Source of the DNA: an uncultured archaeon
GTDB taxonomy: Archaea; Asgardarchaeota; Jordiarchaeia; Jordiarchaeales; Jordiarchaeaceae
NCBI GenBank assembly: GCA_964510585.1
Contig: CAZECW010000124.1
Span: 1-6,403, forward strand
Reading direction: 5' to 3'
Length of the DNA: 6,403 bases
The stretch's first letter is position 1, and the number at the start of each line of letters is the position of its first letter. Under the pieces are notes generated by a model. It saw only the letters and a list, made by a program, of their open reading frames with translations, was not told where the DNA came from and did not search any database. This document shows, one piece after another, positions 83-6,234 of the stretch. The translations under genes were made by a program, and so were the position numbers.

Positions 83-126
83 AAAGACAAATAAATCTAC
101 ATCACCTGTGGACATAAGCGGACATA
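83..126 (+). repeat. IS607-type left-end direct repeats (putative TnpA HTH binding motifs)
   Basis: GTGGACATA (108-116) and GCGGACATA (118-126) are 10 nt apart, with weaker copies ATCTACATC (95-103) and AAAGACAAA (83-91), directly upstream of the tnpA ATG. Short direct repeats of about 9 bp are the known architecture of IS607-family ends. Confidence 0.6.
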
Positions 127-131
127 TTATT

Positions 132-713
132 ATGGATAGACTGTACACTTTAAAAGAAGCAAAGATGCTACTCGGTGTCTGCACAAAGACTATTCAGCGG
201 TGGGACAGGGAAGGAAAAGTAAGAGTGGTGAGAACCTCTGGAGGTAGAAGACGTATTCCTGAAAGCGAAATACTGCGGATACAGGGAGAAGAAAGAAGAA
301 AGGGGAGGGTTATTGGATACGCTCGGGTCTCGTCTCCGTCACAGAGAGACGATTTGGAACGTCAAGTAGCGTTAGTCAAAAATAGAGGGGTGGAAGAAGT
401 GCTAACCGATGTGGGGTCGGGGCTGAATGAGAAGAGACGAAATTTCAGGAAAATATTAAAAATGGTGGCGGAGAGGAAAATTTCCCATATTGTAATATCT
501 TATCCTGATAGGCTTACCCGGTTCGGATTCCAAACGCTAAAAAACCTTTTCTCCGCCTTTGGAACCGAAATAACCGTAATAAAAGAAGACCAGTACAAAT
601 CACCGCAAGAAGAAATGGTAAAAGACCTAATAACCATAATTTCACACTTCTCCGGCAAACTCTACGGCACCCGCTCCCACAAAAATAAACAAAACAAAAA
701 AATGCAAACATAA
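132..713 (+). CDS. tnpA: IS607-family transposase TnpA (N-terminal MerR-like HTH + serine recombinase domain), 193 aa from ATG132; the ORF track starts at GTG108
   Basis: N-terminal LYTLKEAKMLLGVCTKTIQRWDREGK..RTSGGRRR HTH; catalytic GYARVSS; DVGSGLNEKRRNF, YPDRLTRFGF and EEMVKDLITIISHFSGKLYGTRSHK are all IS607 TnpA hallmarks. Confidence 0.95.
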   Translation: MDRLYTLKEAKMLLGVCTKTIQRWDREGKVRVVRTSGGRRRIPESEILRIQGEERRKGRVIGYARVSSPSQRDDLERQVALVKNRGVEEVLTDVGSGLNEKRRNFRKILKMVAERKISHIVISYPDRLTRFGFQTLKNLFSAFGTEITVIKEDQYKSPQEEMVKDLITIISHFSGKLYGTRSHKNKQNKKMQT

Positions 714-1896: not shown

Positions 1897-2328
1897 TTAG
1901 ATTTTTTTAATAGTTGCGGTTACTTTTCTTATGAGTTCGTTTGTGTGGTTGCAGTTTGTGCTCTGGCAGGTGGTGCAGATTGCGAGTGGGCTTAGGGCTG
2001 TTTTCACGAGGTAGACCTTTGTGTGGTCTTGTCTTGTGGTGTATTCTTTGTGTTCGGGGTAGAGTTGGGGTAGGGTTTTTAGTACTGCGAGTTCCTGTTC
2101 TTTGGCGCAGGTTTTTTGGAGTTCTTTAAGGAGGTAAGCTGTTAAATATTTTATGTGGGGTAGTTTTTCTACTGGTCGGGGGTTCTGGTAGTTCAGTATG
2201 TTTCCGCAGGTTAAACATTTTATGTATCCTACTACTTCCACTATTTCTGTGGGGATTACTGTTTGCTGGTGGTTGCGGTCAAGTAGGAGGACTTCGGAGT
2301 AGAACTTCATGTTCACCAACTGTTTCAC
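1897..2328 (-). CDS. Hypothetical Zn-binding protein (143 aa) with two widely spaced CxxC motifs
   Basis: KCLTCGN and ICTTCQS motifs about 80 aa apart; GTG start overlaps the upstream stop (GTGA coupling), indicating an operon with 2325-2720. Confidence 0.7.
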   Translation of the reverse strand: MKQLVNMKFYSEVLLLDRNHQQTVIPTEIVEVVGYIKCLTCGNILNYQNPRPVEKLPHIKYLTAYLLKELQKTCAKEQELAVLKTLPQLYPEHKEYTTRQDHTKVYLVKTALSPLAICTTCQSTNCNHTNELIRKVTATIKKI

Positions 2329-2720
2329 TTCCCCATATTATTATTGTTGTTGTTGGTTGTTGTGGTGTATCCTTTTAGTATGTAGAGGTTGGGTTTTGGG
2401 TTGCTTAGTTGGACTGGTACTGTTTTTGTTTCTCCGAGTAGTTCCTCAGCCTTTTTTCGTCCCATGCTGGTTAGGGATATTTTCTTGTCTTTGATTTTGA
2501 AAAGTTGGGGGTAATCGTTTATCATCGTGTAGAGGTCTTTCCAGCGTTTTAGGAGGGCTCGTCTGCGGGCTATGCTCGTGAGTGTTCCGATGCCTATGGC
2601 GCTGCTTGTGGTTTCCGCTTCGGCTATGCGGAAAACCATTAGTATGTTTTTAAGCGTTTTATCCTCGCTTGGTTGAGTGCCGGCATTGTTTTTCTTTGAG
2701 TCTGAATCCGTTTCTTTCAC
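2325..2720 (-). CDS. Hypothetical protein (131 aa), probable winged-helix DNA-binding protein
   Basis: KKISLTSMGRKKAEELL fits the wing / 'LT..G' C-terminal wHTH motif, preceded by helical segments. GTG start with a purine-rich RBS-like stretch and a strong TATA box 26 nt upstream. Confidence 0.7.
   Translation of the reverse strand: MKETDSDSKKNNAGTQPSEDKTLKNILMVFRIAEAETTSSAIGIGTLTSIARRRALLKRWKDLYTMINDYPQLFKIKDKKISLTSMGRKKAEELLGETKTVPVQLSNPKPNLYILKGYTTTTNNNNNNMGK
2337..2366 (-). repeat. Low-complexity ACN/AAY trinucleotide tract encoding TTTTNNNNNN
   Basis: Minus strand reads acc aca aca acc aac aac aac aat aat aat at the 3' end of the 2325-2720 gene. Confidence 0.7.
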
Positions 2721-3479: not shown

Positions 3480-4771
3480 GTGGACGCGATTGTAATCAGA
3501 ACTTTGAGATTTAACATTGAAAGTAATGCATGTTTGGATAAAGCTTTAGAGGTTTTCAAGGACATGGTAAACGAGATGTTGAAGTACGGGCTTGAAAACG
3601 AGGTTTACTCCGCCACAGAATTAGAGAAACATTTCTGGAACCCCTTTAAAGACAAATACCGCCTGGCAACTCACTACACCACCAGCGCCTCACGATACGC
3701 CGCAAGCCTACTCCAATCCCACCTCAGCAACCTGAAAGCCTGGAATGCAAACAGAAAGCCAACCAAGGAACCTAGCCCCCCAAAGCAGAAAAAACTCTGC
3801 ATGAGACTCCAAACGATACTAGCACGCCCCAAACTAGTTAACGGAAAACTAGAACTACACATAACCATAACCACAAAACCCAAAAAAGAACACGTAAAAC
3901 TGGCACTTCAGCCATACTCCTACGCCGAGCCTCTAGTTAAGGCCTGGGCTGCAGAAGAACTTAAAGTAGGCGAAATCACCATAAAGCCATCCGAGGTCTA
4001 CATACCCTTCAAGCAGAAAGTAACCTGTAACGAAAACCCCATAGGCGCAATGTTCTTCGACACCAACCTTTCAAGTTTGGACTTCGTCGTCGCAACAAAG
4101 AACGGAGTTTTCAAAGCCTTCAGCTTAGACATCTCACTGATCCAAAAAATCAGGCAGAGATACGCAGAAAAGAGAAAGCGAATCCAGAACAAGGTTAAAA
4201 ACCCCAAAGACAGAAAAAGACTCTGGGAGAAGTACGAGAAACGCGAGAAGCGGCGGGTGAACCACCTGCTGCACCTCGTAAGCAGTTTAGTCGCCGGGAT
4301 TTCTGAGAGGTACGGTGGGCTCTGCGCTGTTTTCGGAGACCTAACCGGGATCCGGAACAGCATAAACGAGCTTCCGCGCACAAAGGAACTCAGACATCAG
4401 CTAAACCTCTGGCCCTTTGAAAGGCTTCAACAGCTCTGCGAGTTCAAGTTGCTCCAGAAACCTCTTCTGGAGGGTGTTGGATTGGCTGCTTGACTCTGTA
4501 CATTAGCGAGGAGTACACTTCCTCTACCTGCCCCTTGTGCCGAAGGATAACTGAAACGCCCCGAGGACGGATATTCAGGTGTCCGTACTGTGGTTACAGC
4601 GGTGATCGACATATTGTTGCAGCGATAAACATGGCCCTTAAGCCTGGTCCCGAGTGGCTTAACTGGGTTAGCCGGGTGGTCACTCCCTACCCCAAGGTAA
4701 CCAGAATCAGGGTTGACCCAAAAATCAGCCCTGAGGAGACCTTGAACCGGGTTTTGGGAACCAGTCCTTAA
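3480..4771 (+). pseudogene. tnpB: TnpB (RNA-guided RuvC nuclease family, about 422 aa when repaired), split by a frameshift at about 4458-4483 into ORFs 3480-4493 and 4490-4771
   Basis: N-terminal IRTLRF strand; RuvC-I FFDTN (D194, nt 4059); basic helical region (EKRKRIQ..EKRRVNHLLH); RuvC-II region VFGDLTGIR; W-P-F..L..LCEFK; ISEEYTSSTCPLC..FRCPYCG Zn ribbon; DRHIVAAIN RuvC-III region. Confidence 0.9.
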
Positions 4772-4902
4772 GAGTCGTTATAGGTGTGGCGAGTTTGGGT
4801 ATCCGCCGAATGCCAATGAGCCCCCTAAAAGGGGTGAGGAAGGGAATGATTGTGGACTTATGTCTACTTAACCCAATACCCTTATCCTATTCATTTTCTG
4901 GG
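4772..4902 (+). ncRNA. Putative TnpB omega/reRNA scaffold overlapping the element right end
   Basis: Non-coding stretch after the tnpB stop with stems GGCG/CGCC (4788-4807), CCCC-CTAAAA-GGGG (4821-4834) and AGGGAATGA/TCATTTTCT (4841-4849 / 4891-4899, two G-U pairs), ending at TGGG. The position is as expected for TnpB guide scaffolds; boundaries are inferred. Confidence 0.5.
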
Positions 4903-5413
4903 AATTAAGCTGTTACCTAATTTGTGGATACCGGTTCCCAACTATGGTTATGGAGTGTTTACCGATTTTATTAGTGATTTGGGTGTGGGGCCTTCCTCAT
5001 TCATCTTTAATACTGGTATGATTGTTGCGGGTGTTCTTACCGTGCTAATGTTTCCCACTCTGCTCAGGCCGCTGGGAAGTACGGGGAAAGCGAAGATAGG
5101 TGTCGCATTAGGAATTATTGCGGGGGTAGGGTTGGCTGGTGTCGGTGTCTATCCAGAAAATACAGGGTTTTACCATGTTTTGTTTGCTTCCATGTTCTTT
5201 ATTTCTATTTTTATTGCGGCGGGTGTTCTCAGCTATGCTAATGAGTCAACTTCGTTCTTTTCAAAGACTGTTCAAAGATTGGGCTACTTCGTATTTCCAG
5301 CGGGTCTTGTTTGCACTGGTCTTATTCTAATTTTCGGGCCCCCTCCAGAATGGGTTCATCTCTTCTTATTATTAATTTGGGCTCTACCACTAAGCATAGA
5401 AATGTTGGCTTAA
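4850..5413 (+). pseudogene. 5'-truncated DUF998-like multi-pass membrane protein gene (paralog of 5542-6234)
   Basis: YxxxxxxISDLG..FN.G, G.GV..E....H..F and G..PEW motifs. Gap-free alignment with the downstream paralog gives 83/162 identities from WIPVPN onward. The N-terminal TM helix of the paralog is missing, there is an in-frame TGA at 4847-4849 and no RBS, so TTG4850 is probably not a real start. Confidence 0.75.
4851..4870 (+). repeat. IS607-type right-end tandem motif
   Basis: TGTGGACTTA-TGTCTACTTA (8/10 tandem, 10-nt period), same orientation as and 9/10 identical to the left-end motif TGTGGACATA. Confidence 0.55.
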
Positions 5414-5541: not shown

Positions 5542-6234
5542 GTGGTGATCTCTGTGAAAAATAAAAAGTCCGGTTTAGGGAAAAAGCTCCCGTTGACTTT
5601 TGTAGGCGGTGTTATTGCCTTCTTGGGCATAACTATTGCAGTTGTTTGCATTTTGAGTGCAGTGTTCCTTTACACCAGTGTCTCTCCAGTTATGCCTTAC
5701 TCAGTTAAGATATTCCTCTTTAGGACTTGGGTTCCCGTTCCCAACTTTGGATACTCCTGGACTCGCCAAGCTATAAGTGACTTAGGCGTGGGTCCTACTT
5801 CCTTCATGTTCAACGTGGGTCTAATCATTACTGGTATACTATATCTCCCGTTCCTTCCTACGATCCTTAAGCCTTTGGGATACACTAGAACCGCCAAGAT
5901 TGGGATGGTAACAGGTTGGATTGCATGCGTCTCCCTCATCGGGATAGGCGTTTTTTCAGAGGTGGCATCATTCTACCATAACCTATTCTCCATATTGTTC
6001 TGGATGCTCATCGCATTAACAGCCGGTATCCTAAGTTTGGCTATGCGTTCATCATCATTCTTCTCAAAGGCAATGCAGCGTATCGGATACTTTGAGTGGG
6101 CAGCAGGCTGGACACTGGGAGTCCTCACCCTCCTCTACGGCGCTATTCCCGAATGGCTCATGCTCCTCACACTAACTATCTGGATTTACGCTCTGAGCAT
6201 AGAAATGATAGTTAAAGGAAGAAAAGCCCAATAA
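5542..6234 (+). CDS. DUF998-like multi-pass membrane protein (230 aa; true start possibly GTG5554)
   Basis: N-terminal TM helix, then GYSWTRQAISDLG..FMFNVGLIITG, GIGVFSE..FYH.LF and YGAIPEW. GGTGAT RBS-like site at 5544-5549 fits a start at 5554. Confidence 0.88.
   Translation: MVISVKNKKSGLGKKLPLTFVGGVIAFLGITIAVVCILSAVFLYTSVSPVMPYSVKIFLFRTWVPVPNFGYSWTRQAISDLGVGPTSFMFNVGLIITGILYLPFLPTILKPLGYTRTAKIGMVTGWIACVSLIGIGVFSEVASFYHNLFSILFWMLIALTAGILSLAMRSSSFFSKAMQRIGYFEWAAGWTLGVLTLLYGAIPEWLMLLTLTIWIYALSIEMIVKGRKAQ

Follow-up and report, generated by a model that had tools for sequence, protein, structure and literature searches.

A candidate tRNA-type mini-intron and a clade-conserved variant RuvC site in an IS607-type tnpB of an Asgard archaeon

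In Fanzors and several clades of TnpB, the RuvC-II motif has its glutamate exchanged for Gly or Pro, and an alternative Glu is located about 45 residues downstream (Jiang 2023, PMC10530073), where it is essential for cleavage by Fanzor2 (PMC10530073). Clades rearranged at RuvC-II (RIIr-3, RIIr-5 and others) and at RuvC-III have been catalogued, and the authors of that catalogue argue that conserved rearrangements imply retained activity and regard Asp-to-His as probably active (Altae-Tran 2023, PMC10691335). Bulge-helix-bulge (BHB) introns have been described separately; the published case in a protein gene is the cbf5 pre-mRNA of Crenarchaeota (PMC2738675), to which the archaeal protein-gene examples are essentially limited. 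Here we analyze a tnpB gene of an IS607-type element on a 6,403-bp stretch of DNA (the window), which is the whole of contig C124 of a metagenome-assembled genome (MAG) of 3.78 Mb in 217 contigs. The closest matches to the window proteins carry the labels Candidatus Freyarchaeota or Jordarchaeia, both Asgard archaea. We read the locus as an IS607 tnpB with a passenger gene, whose transcript would be spliced at a BHB intron and whose RuvC site is a variant conserved in its clade, and we assign this joint reading a probability of roughly 0.6.

The open reading frame (ORF) of tnpB is interrupted near its 3' end. Frame 0, read from the GTG start at 3480, stops at the TGA at 4491-4493 after 337 residues, and the remainder of the gene lies in frame 2 and ends at 4771. 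The repaired frame assumed in the preliminary description, which was made from the letters of this DNA and their ORFs, is thus real, and the break lies within a 23-nt insert rather than at a simple 1-nt indel. Excising 4460-4482 yields a single ORF of 422 residues. Exon 1 (3480-4459, plus strand) encodes residues 1-326 and two nucleotides of codon 327, and contains the WED/REC region, RuvC-I and RuvC-II; exon 2 (4483-4771, plus strand) encodes residues 327-422 plus the stop, and contains the alternative Glu, a C4 zinc finger and RuvC-III. The apparent frameshift is quite probably a 23-nt tRNA-type (BHB) intron at 4460-4482 on the plus strand, a phase 2 candidate inside Asn327, as the insert alignment and the BHB geometry suggest. 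If tnpB is not frameshifted, the host must therefore splice these 23 nt out of the mRNA to obtain the 422-residue protein.

The DNA alignment of all homologues places an insert of varying length between the invariant flanks ...GAGTTYAAGYTGCYYCRGAA and TGGCTGCTTRAC... The insert measures 23 nt in the window (4460-4482), 19 nt in loci L007 and L008, 14 nt in L012, L044 and L047, 27 nt in L009, 21 nt in L010, L015 and L048, and 0 nt in both L013 and L045; three of these lengths are not multiples of three. The segment is missing from every other TnpB examined, and once it is removed, no gap is needed to align EFKLLQ-NGCLT with EYKAKL-NGIPV and the like. In the intact homologue P0003, the 27-nt insert is translated, and the only segment of its AlphaFold2 model with a predicted local distance difference test score (pLDDT) below 50 lies there. 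Public records list such genes as 337- or 383-residue 'hypothetical' or partial proteins, and standard annotation would call genes with such introns pseudogenes.

The boundaries defined by this alignment coincide with a canonical BHB motif. Its 5' strand spans 4444-4457 on the plus strand, comprising the exon helix (4444-4449 and 4451-4453) and the exon side of the central helix (4454-4457), and the pairing is seen in six homologues. The exon CCAG (4454-4457) pairs with the intron TTGG (4477-4480) to form the central helix, which is flanked by two 3-nt bulges, AAA (4458-4460) on the 5' side and ATT (4481-4483) on the 3' side. The exon-exon helix consists of 3 + 6 bp, 4451-4453 pairing with 4484-4486 and 4444-4449 with 4488-4493. 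Cuts after the second base of each bulge give CAGAA|TGGC, which is the junction found in the insert-less L045 and L013, and the placement of the window insert is unambiguous, since a shift by one base does not reproduce L045. Six of six insert-bearing loci share the four central pairs, the 3-nt bulges and the 3 + 6 bp exon helix, a geometry that occurs at 0.14% (0.0014) of random boundaries in this genome.

Comparison across the six sequences also argues for a conserved RNA fold. Standard pairs fill 88 of 88 cells, compared with 15-50% when the partners are slid by 1-3 columns. Two pairs are compensatory: one in the central helix varies among A-U, G-U and G-C, and the other, in the exon helix, alternates between U-A and C-G at third positions of Phe and Leu codons, where the changes are synonymous. 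With the flanks 4436-4500, the BHB-like fold is the minimum free energy (MFE) structure (z = -3.0); with a different flank, the MFE structure of the window insert was a competing 8-bp hairpin. Four features expected of an mRNA BHB intron, namely the geometry, frame restoration, compensatory change (in six sequences) and a host endonuclease and ligase, are found here.

Selection on the downstream exon points in the same direction. Between the window and L008, dN/dS, the ratio of nonsynonymous to synonymous divergence, is 0.20 for exon 2 and 0.21 for exon 1, at a synonymous divergence (dS) of 0.66-1.0. Because dN/dS is 0.20 despite inserts that are not multiples of three, exon 2 appears to have been read in the TnpB frame during the divergence of the two copies (dS 0.66). 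The tnpB genes of the window and L008, the latter on a 427-kb contig, carry no other defect in about 420 codons.

These observations have to be weighed against the possibility that tnpB is a decaying pseudogene, simple decay having been named as possible for the two active-site changes in the preliminary description. On this view a coding loop sits on a DNA-hairpin indel hot spot, one base has been lost or gained, and the BHB-like fold is incidental. Several points favor this explanation and count against splicing. Decayed copies exist in the family: 2 nt are deleted in L045 and 1 nt is inserted in L013, several indels are present in L010 and L015, and L044, L047 and L012 are N-terminally truncated. 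Both insert-less copies (L045 and L013) are among the decayed ones, and a change of a single base would bring each broken copy into frame. If translated in the frame of exon 2, the insert's 3' part would yield a semi-conserved (R/G)CW(T/N/I), and hairpins could have been deleted from the DNA through a short GAA microhomology. The fold itself has weaknesses, as the helix on the intron side is weak and contains a C-U mismatch that is conserved, the MFE fold places the 5' bulge opposite GUG, and the covariation is drawn from six sequences of two lineages. In addition, tnpB is single-copy in this genome, in which no further close copies were found, and the passenger gene of the window is also split.

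Decay of this kind, however, would not be expected to leave the window and L008 otherwise free of defects at that divergence, with exon 2 at a dN/dS of 0.20 and with inserts of 23 and 19 nt. Nor does it readily account for an exact BHB geometry at independently defined boundaries (p about 0.001), for the synonymous compensatory pair in the exon helix, for the lack of the insert in all other TnpBs, or for inserts of the same kind in essential genes of the same genome. We regard a decaying pseudogene as unlikely; the active-site residues are conserved with a dN/dS of about 0.2, and a BHB intron offers the best account of the frame break.

Programmed ribosomal frameshifting, transcriptional slippage, or translation of TnpB as two separate polypeptides, the second restarting at TTG 4490, would also bypass the break, and the stable hairpin there and a C-run in some homologues are in line with such a mechanism. 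The required direction of the shift, however, differs between copies (division by three leaves a remainder of 1 for 19 nt and of 2 for 14 and 23 nt), no slippery site is shared, no conserved start codon for a C-terminal product is present in L008 or L044, and the segment is wholly missing from two homologues. Recoding or a split protein is consequently very improbable. An assembly or sequencing error in the MAG contig might be suspected, given that the window makes up one complete contig of 6.4 kb in an assembly of 217; it is the least probable explanation of all, because the identical 337-residue frame-0 product is recorded from six contigs. Moreover, inserts of varied length recur in independent assemblies (L007/L008, L012/L044/L047 and L010/L015/L048).

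The BHB intron interpretation requires that the host can process such a motif. The genome encodes two EndA-type genes (PF01974; G000:C157:27039-27287 and C126:19921-20181) and one rtcB (PF01139), and two EndA genes are consistent with a putative heteromeric enzyme of broad specificity. Two further genes of this genome, both essential, carry BHB inserts of 30 nt. In a gene of the TyrRS/TrpRS family (PF00579), the insert lies at 1535-1564 of L050 (G000:C4), just before HLG(H/W), and contains three stops; BHB-guided excision restores EPSG-LFHLG (...EPSGLFHLGW...). In rtcB, the insert lies at 1561-1590 of L057 (G000:C58, about 3762-3791), between LPD and AHQGYG, and contains an in-frame TGA; its excision restores LPDAHQGYG. 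The ligase presumed to join the exons, RtcB, would thus depend on splicing of its own mRNA. The synthetase intron (L050 1535-1546) and the tnpB intron of L008 (6975-6985) start alike (AAACCTTTTAGG and CCCCTTTAAGG, respectively), and both end in CCRGAA; the similar ends may reflect shared constraint or shared ancestry.

Introns are abundant in the tRNA genes of related archaea. In Freyarchaeia and Atabeyarchaeia, 92-95% of tRNA genes contain them (PMC11291895), and among Asgard families, the number of intervening sequences per tRNA is highest in Freyr- and Jordiarchaeaceae (10.64898/2026.10.13.758758). Our literature search found no paper on mRNA BHB introns in Asgard archaea or on an intron in tnpB. 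The candidate intron resembles that of cbf5 (PMC2738675) in that a tRNA-type BHB lies inside a coding frame, that presence and absence are polymorphic among relatives, and that EndA plus an RNA ligase are required. It differs in its Asgard host, in belonging to a mobile-element gene, in its very short (14-27 nt) and variable length, and in that splicing is predicted from sequence. An intron of 14-27 nt that varies in length, with insert-less alleles in two sub-lineages, would be tractable for studying intron origin, drift and loss.

The spliced product has the architecture of a TnpB. In Pfam, the second piece matches Cas12f1-like_TNB (PF07282, 3.6e-12) and the first, weakly, OrfB_IS605 (PF01385), and exon 1 is 60-65% identical to P0002 and P0003. 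A profile of 104 relatives matches Cas12f/TnpB chains of the PDB at 6e-52 to 5e-30. The AlphaFold2 model of P0003 (pLDDT 90.8) has Cas12f, TnpB and Fanzor2 as its top folds, with a template modeling (TM) score of 0.66-0.68 to AsCas12f; Fanzor2 and ISDra2 TnpB are also matched. Pfam, the profile and the model therefore agree on WED/REC and a split RuvC with a TNB (zinc-ribbon) module. The C4 zinc finger (CPLC ... CPYC, 4529-4591, plus strand) has four Cys columns that are invariant or nearly so in the 104 relatives. A structured RNA extends from the 3' end of the gene up to the right end of the element, as in other TnpBs. What the protein lacks is the canonical D-E-D triad, since Asp194 is kept, with Gly286 and His370 in place of the other two residues.

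The catalytic positions, all on the plus strand, are as the preliminary description had proposed. The RuvC-I Asp194 (GAC, 4059-4061, in FFDTN) is intact, near-invariant in the 104 relatives and kept in all clade members. Gly286 (GGA, 4335-4337, in VFGDL) stands at the canonical RuvC-II Glu, in a column that holds E in 99 and G in 9 of 109 relatives. Glu336 (GAG, 4508-4510, in ISEEYTS), the alternative RuvC-II Glu, lies 50 residues past Gly286 once the insert is removed, and is invariant in the clade; across the 109-protein alignment, its column is P or A where relatives have the canonical Glu, and E in all nine rows with Gly. His370 (CAT, 4610-4612, in GDRHIVAAINM) takes the place of the RuvC-III catalytic Asp and is H in seven of the seven clade members covering the site. 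According to the alignment of 109 relatives and the profile-PDB alignments, these columns correspond to the RuvC-I Asp, lEdL, the Pro/Ala of (N)PxxTS, and dRDxNAAxNI in Cas12f/TnpB.

The preliminary description had called for a homologue alignment and reasoned that Glu and Asp at these positions in all close homologues would mark the changes as private mutations; the alignment gives a different picture. The close homologues are few and all from Jordarchaeia/Freyarchaeia, and each one covering the site keeps the Glu of SE(A/E/G)YTS and the His of G(D/N)(R/K)H.VA. Gly at RuvC-II is found in all clade members except L044 and L012, which have VFEGL. Searching with the mid-region alignment contributed three further loci from metagenomes and none from a genome. 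The next relatives are P0008, at about 36-38% identity, and P0013, at about 32-39%; both were drawn from a library of 1.84 billion proteins and also have D-G-E-H. P0008 is an intact gene of 412 residues, overlapping in a canonical IS607 tnpA-tnpB pair with the 3' end of the serine recombinase gene, and this pair was seen on 14 contigs. Both halves of the gene have a dN/dS of about 0.2 in the clade. Because purifying selection has kept the residues throughout the clade, and P0008 and P0013 share them, they are not private damage; judged from these alignments, the odd active-site residues are conserved family traits rather than decay.

L044 and L012 regain a Glu at the canonical position (VFEGL, GAA GGC), while their near-identical sister L047 has VFGDL (GGA GAC). 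The two motifs differ by two transitions in adjacent codons, and L044 and L012 are among the N-terminally truncated copies mentioned above. Asp368, two residues before His370, was considered as a substitute catalytic residue and ruled out, as L045 has Asn there (GNRH).

The RuvC-III column is variable well beyond the clade. Among the 109 relatives it holds D in 67, H in 29, Q in 10 and N in 3, so that 42 of them (about 40%) have a residue other than Asp, whereas Asp194 and the canonical or alternative Glu are conserved throughout. A quick maximum-likelihood (ML) tree forces at least eight switches between D and H on well-supported branches. This position has thus changed repeatedly among D, H, Q and N in TnpBs of archaeal type whose RuvC-I Asp and Glu are retained, and no small or hydrophobic residues were seen at it.

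The RuvC-III Asp is essential in the TnpB and Cas12 enzymes that have been tested. It is therefore conceivable that the protein is spliced and expressed, that His370 abolishes cleavage, and that TnpB serves as an RNA-guided binder or regulator similar to TldR, Cas12k or Cas12m. The presence of Gln and Asn at the same position in relatives, the low copy number, and the immobilized or decayed state of several copies are compatible with such a role. We also know of no tested enzyme with a D/E/H RuvC site, which counts against the joint reading. On the other hand, a dead site seems unlikely because Asp194 and Glu336 stay invariant, in the clade as well as in P0008 and P0013. The gene also retains the C4 zinc finger and a full-length RuvC, and it belongs to a transposon that has tnpA and ends in a conserved omegaRNA-like region, with no fixed host gene beside it.

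Like the window protein, TldR, Cas12k and Cas12m have a residue other than Asp at a catalytic position of RuvC. Unlike it, they are immobile, lie beside fixed partner genes and often lack several catalytic residues or the C-terminus. The window tnpB keeps the Asp and the Glu and belongs to an IS607 element whose flanks differ at each locus, so that it does not show the immobilization beside a fixed partner and the eroded site of TldR-like proteins. Conserved rearrangements have also been argued to imply activity (Altae-Tran 2023, PMC10691335). We consider a TnpB that only binds rather unlikely. The preliminary description had taken loss of the RuvC-III Asp as typical of nuclease-dead derivatives; this is too strong, given that Asp-to-His is a catalogued, conserved change, which those who described it take to be probably active, and that Asp194 and Glu336 are invariant. 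On balance, we lean slightly toward a D/E(alt)/H site that still supports RNA-guided DNA cleavage rather than binding only, possibly with an altered metal or substrate preference. The compact 422-residue protein is a candidate for asking whether a D/E/H RuvC cleaves DNA.

Compared with the catalogued clades, the locus shares features with both kinds of rearrangement. With RIIr-3 and RIIr-5, as described in PMC10691335, and with 'TnpB2' and Fanzor (PMC10530073), it has in common the Gly at the canonical site, a conserved Glu two residues before YTS, and the association with an IS607 serine recombinase. In our proteins, Gly286 is followed by the conserved Glu336 before the zinc finger, within the 45-50 residues typical of RIIr clades, and the recombinase is found in the window, L009, L047 and beside P0008. 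The Jordarchaeia/Freyarchaeia clade differs by the additional His at RuvC-III. That His is shared with RIIIr-4, which is associated with MazE/ribbon-helix-helix (RHH) genes, and with the archaea-specific Ser-6/RIIIr-6, both of which have a conserved His at the catalytic Asp (PMC10691335); Ser-6/RIIIr-6 resembles our clade also in its archaeal distribution, and Ser-6 in its serine recombinase. No RHH/MazE neighbor is seen beside the window tnpB, in contrast to RIIIr-4 as it is described there. Identity with RIIIr-4 was rejected, as that clade is characterized in the same source by loss of the C4 zinc finger, and CPLC...CPYC is kept here. The accessible part of Altae-Tran 2023 (PMC10691335) contains no mention that we found of His combined with a rearranged RuvC-II.

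The quick ML tree places the clade among archaeal TnpBs of the DRD/DRH type, separated from the G-altE-D rows at 97% support in the Shimodaira-Hasegawa-like approximate likelihood ratio test (SH-aLRT). In an approximately unbiased (AU) test, one common origin for all Gly/alternative-Glu proteins is not rejected (p 0.17); tree and test comprised our relatives, without reference RIIr-5 or Fanzor sequences. The tree suggests an independent origin of the Gly/alternative-Glu rearrangement in this clade, with the AU value of 0.17 for a single origin to be kept in mind. The Fanzor/IS607 assignment of the preliminary description is thus upheld for the Gly/downstream-Glu pattern, the IS607 tnpA at 108-713 and the P0008 pair, while membership in a Fanzor-related clade is unproven. 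On the residue patterns, the active site is a new member or a combination of known kinds of rearrangement, not a new kind. The clade is well conserved, has a zinc finger, is linked to IS607 and joins two catalogued RuvC rearrangements.

Taken with the intron, these features suggest the following course of events. EndA would cut the pre-mRNA at both bulges, and RtcB would presumably seal the exons to CAG AA | T GGC. The spliced 422-residue TnpB would then bind the 3' omegaRNA, as the conservation of that region implies, and would act on DNA matching a flank-derived guide through Asp194, Glu336 (on the strand before the zinc finger) and His370. A broader scenario can be formulated, in which mobile genes of Jordarchaeia/Freyarchaeia gain and lose mini-introns as tRNA and housekeeping genes do, EndA and RtcB gate TnpB production, the cut may partition transcripts between mRNA and omegaRNA, and the protein is an active Asp/relocated-Glu/His nuclease; as a whole we offer it as a tentative conjecture, less likely than not.

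The remainder of the element is consistent with an IS607-type transposon. tnpA (108-713, plus strand) encodes a serine recombinase of 201 residues with a MerR-like helix-turn-helix (Pfam Resolvase 1.7e-21, HTH_17 1.8e-8, MerR_1), and tnpA is also found upstream of the tnpB copies in L009 and L047. The tnpA-tnpB spacer of the window is 2.77 kb long and contains a conserved passenger gene on the minus strand (1897-2720), to which we assign no function; a Pfam search with it gave no match. In the window the gene is present as pieces of 131 + 143 residues, and in L009 as one ORF of 269 residues. Its nucleotide identity to L008 and L009 is 80-84%, above that of tnpB. By alignment and tblastn, the split (window 2320-2345, minus strand) coincides with a 4-nt length difference in a repeat of AAC/AAT (Asn/Thr) codons. 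The two halves are overlapping ORFs with a GTGA stop/start, and L008 differs by 12 nt in frame at the same site.

Downstream of tnpB, a conserved structured region at 4707-4881 on the plus strand is a putative omegaRNA-like scaffold, on the basis of the alignments and an RNAalifold consensus with eight compensatory pairs. Every lineage conserves about 110 nt past the tnpB stop, including hairpins that covary. Homology to other copies ends at about 4881-4883, which marks the right end of the element; beyond it the flanks diverge in four lineages, each locus being different. A conserved 3' block followed by a variable flank is the pattern expected of an omegaRNA scaffold with a flank-derived guide. 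By analogy with TnpB biology, the expected guide segment would be 4882-4900 on the plus strand, which abuts the right end within the 5' part of a truncated DUF998 gene. An Rfam search assigned no family to the 3' RNA or to the intron hairpin, and a tRNA search of the window found none. The insert-less L013 is a contig of 1,131 nt that ends exactly where the conserved non-coding block GTGGCGAG begins (window 4786); the contig end may be due to chance, or may hint at an origin from a processed transcript.

Beyond the element, tandem DUF998 paralogues were identified by Pfam at 4850-5413 and 5542-6234 of the window. The first copy lacks an N-terminal segment of about 45 residues that is present in the second, and starts inside or just after the right end. 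Because the first copy is N-terminally truncated and begins at the right end, the arrangement suggests that the element inserted into the 5' part of the first DUF998 gene.

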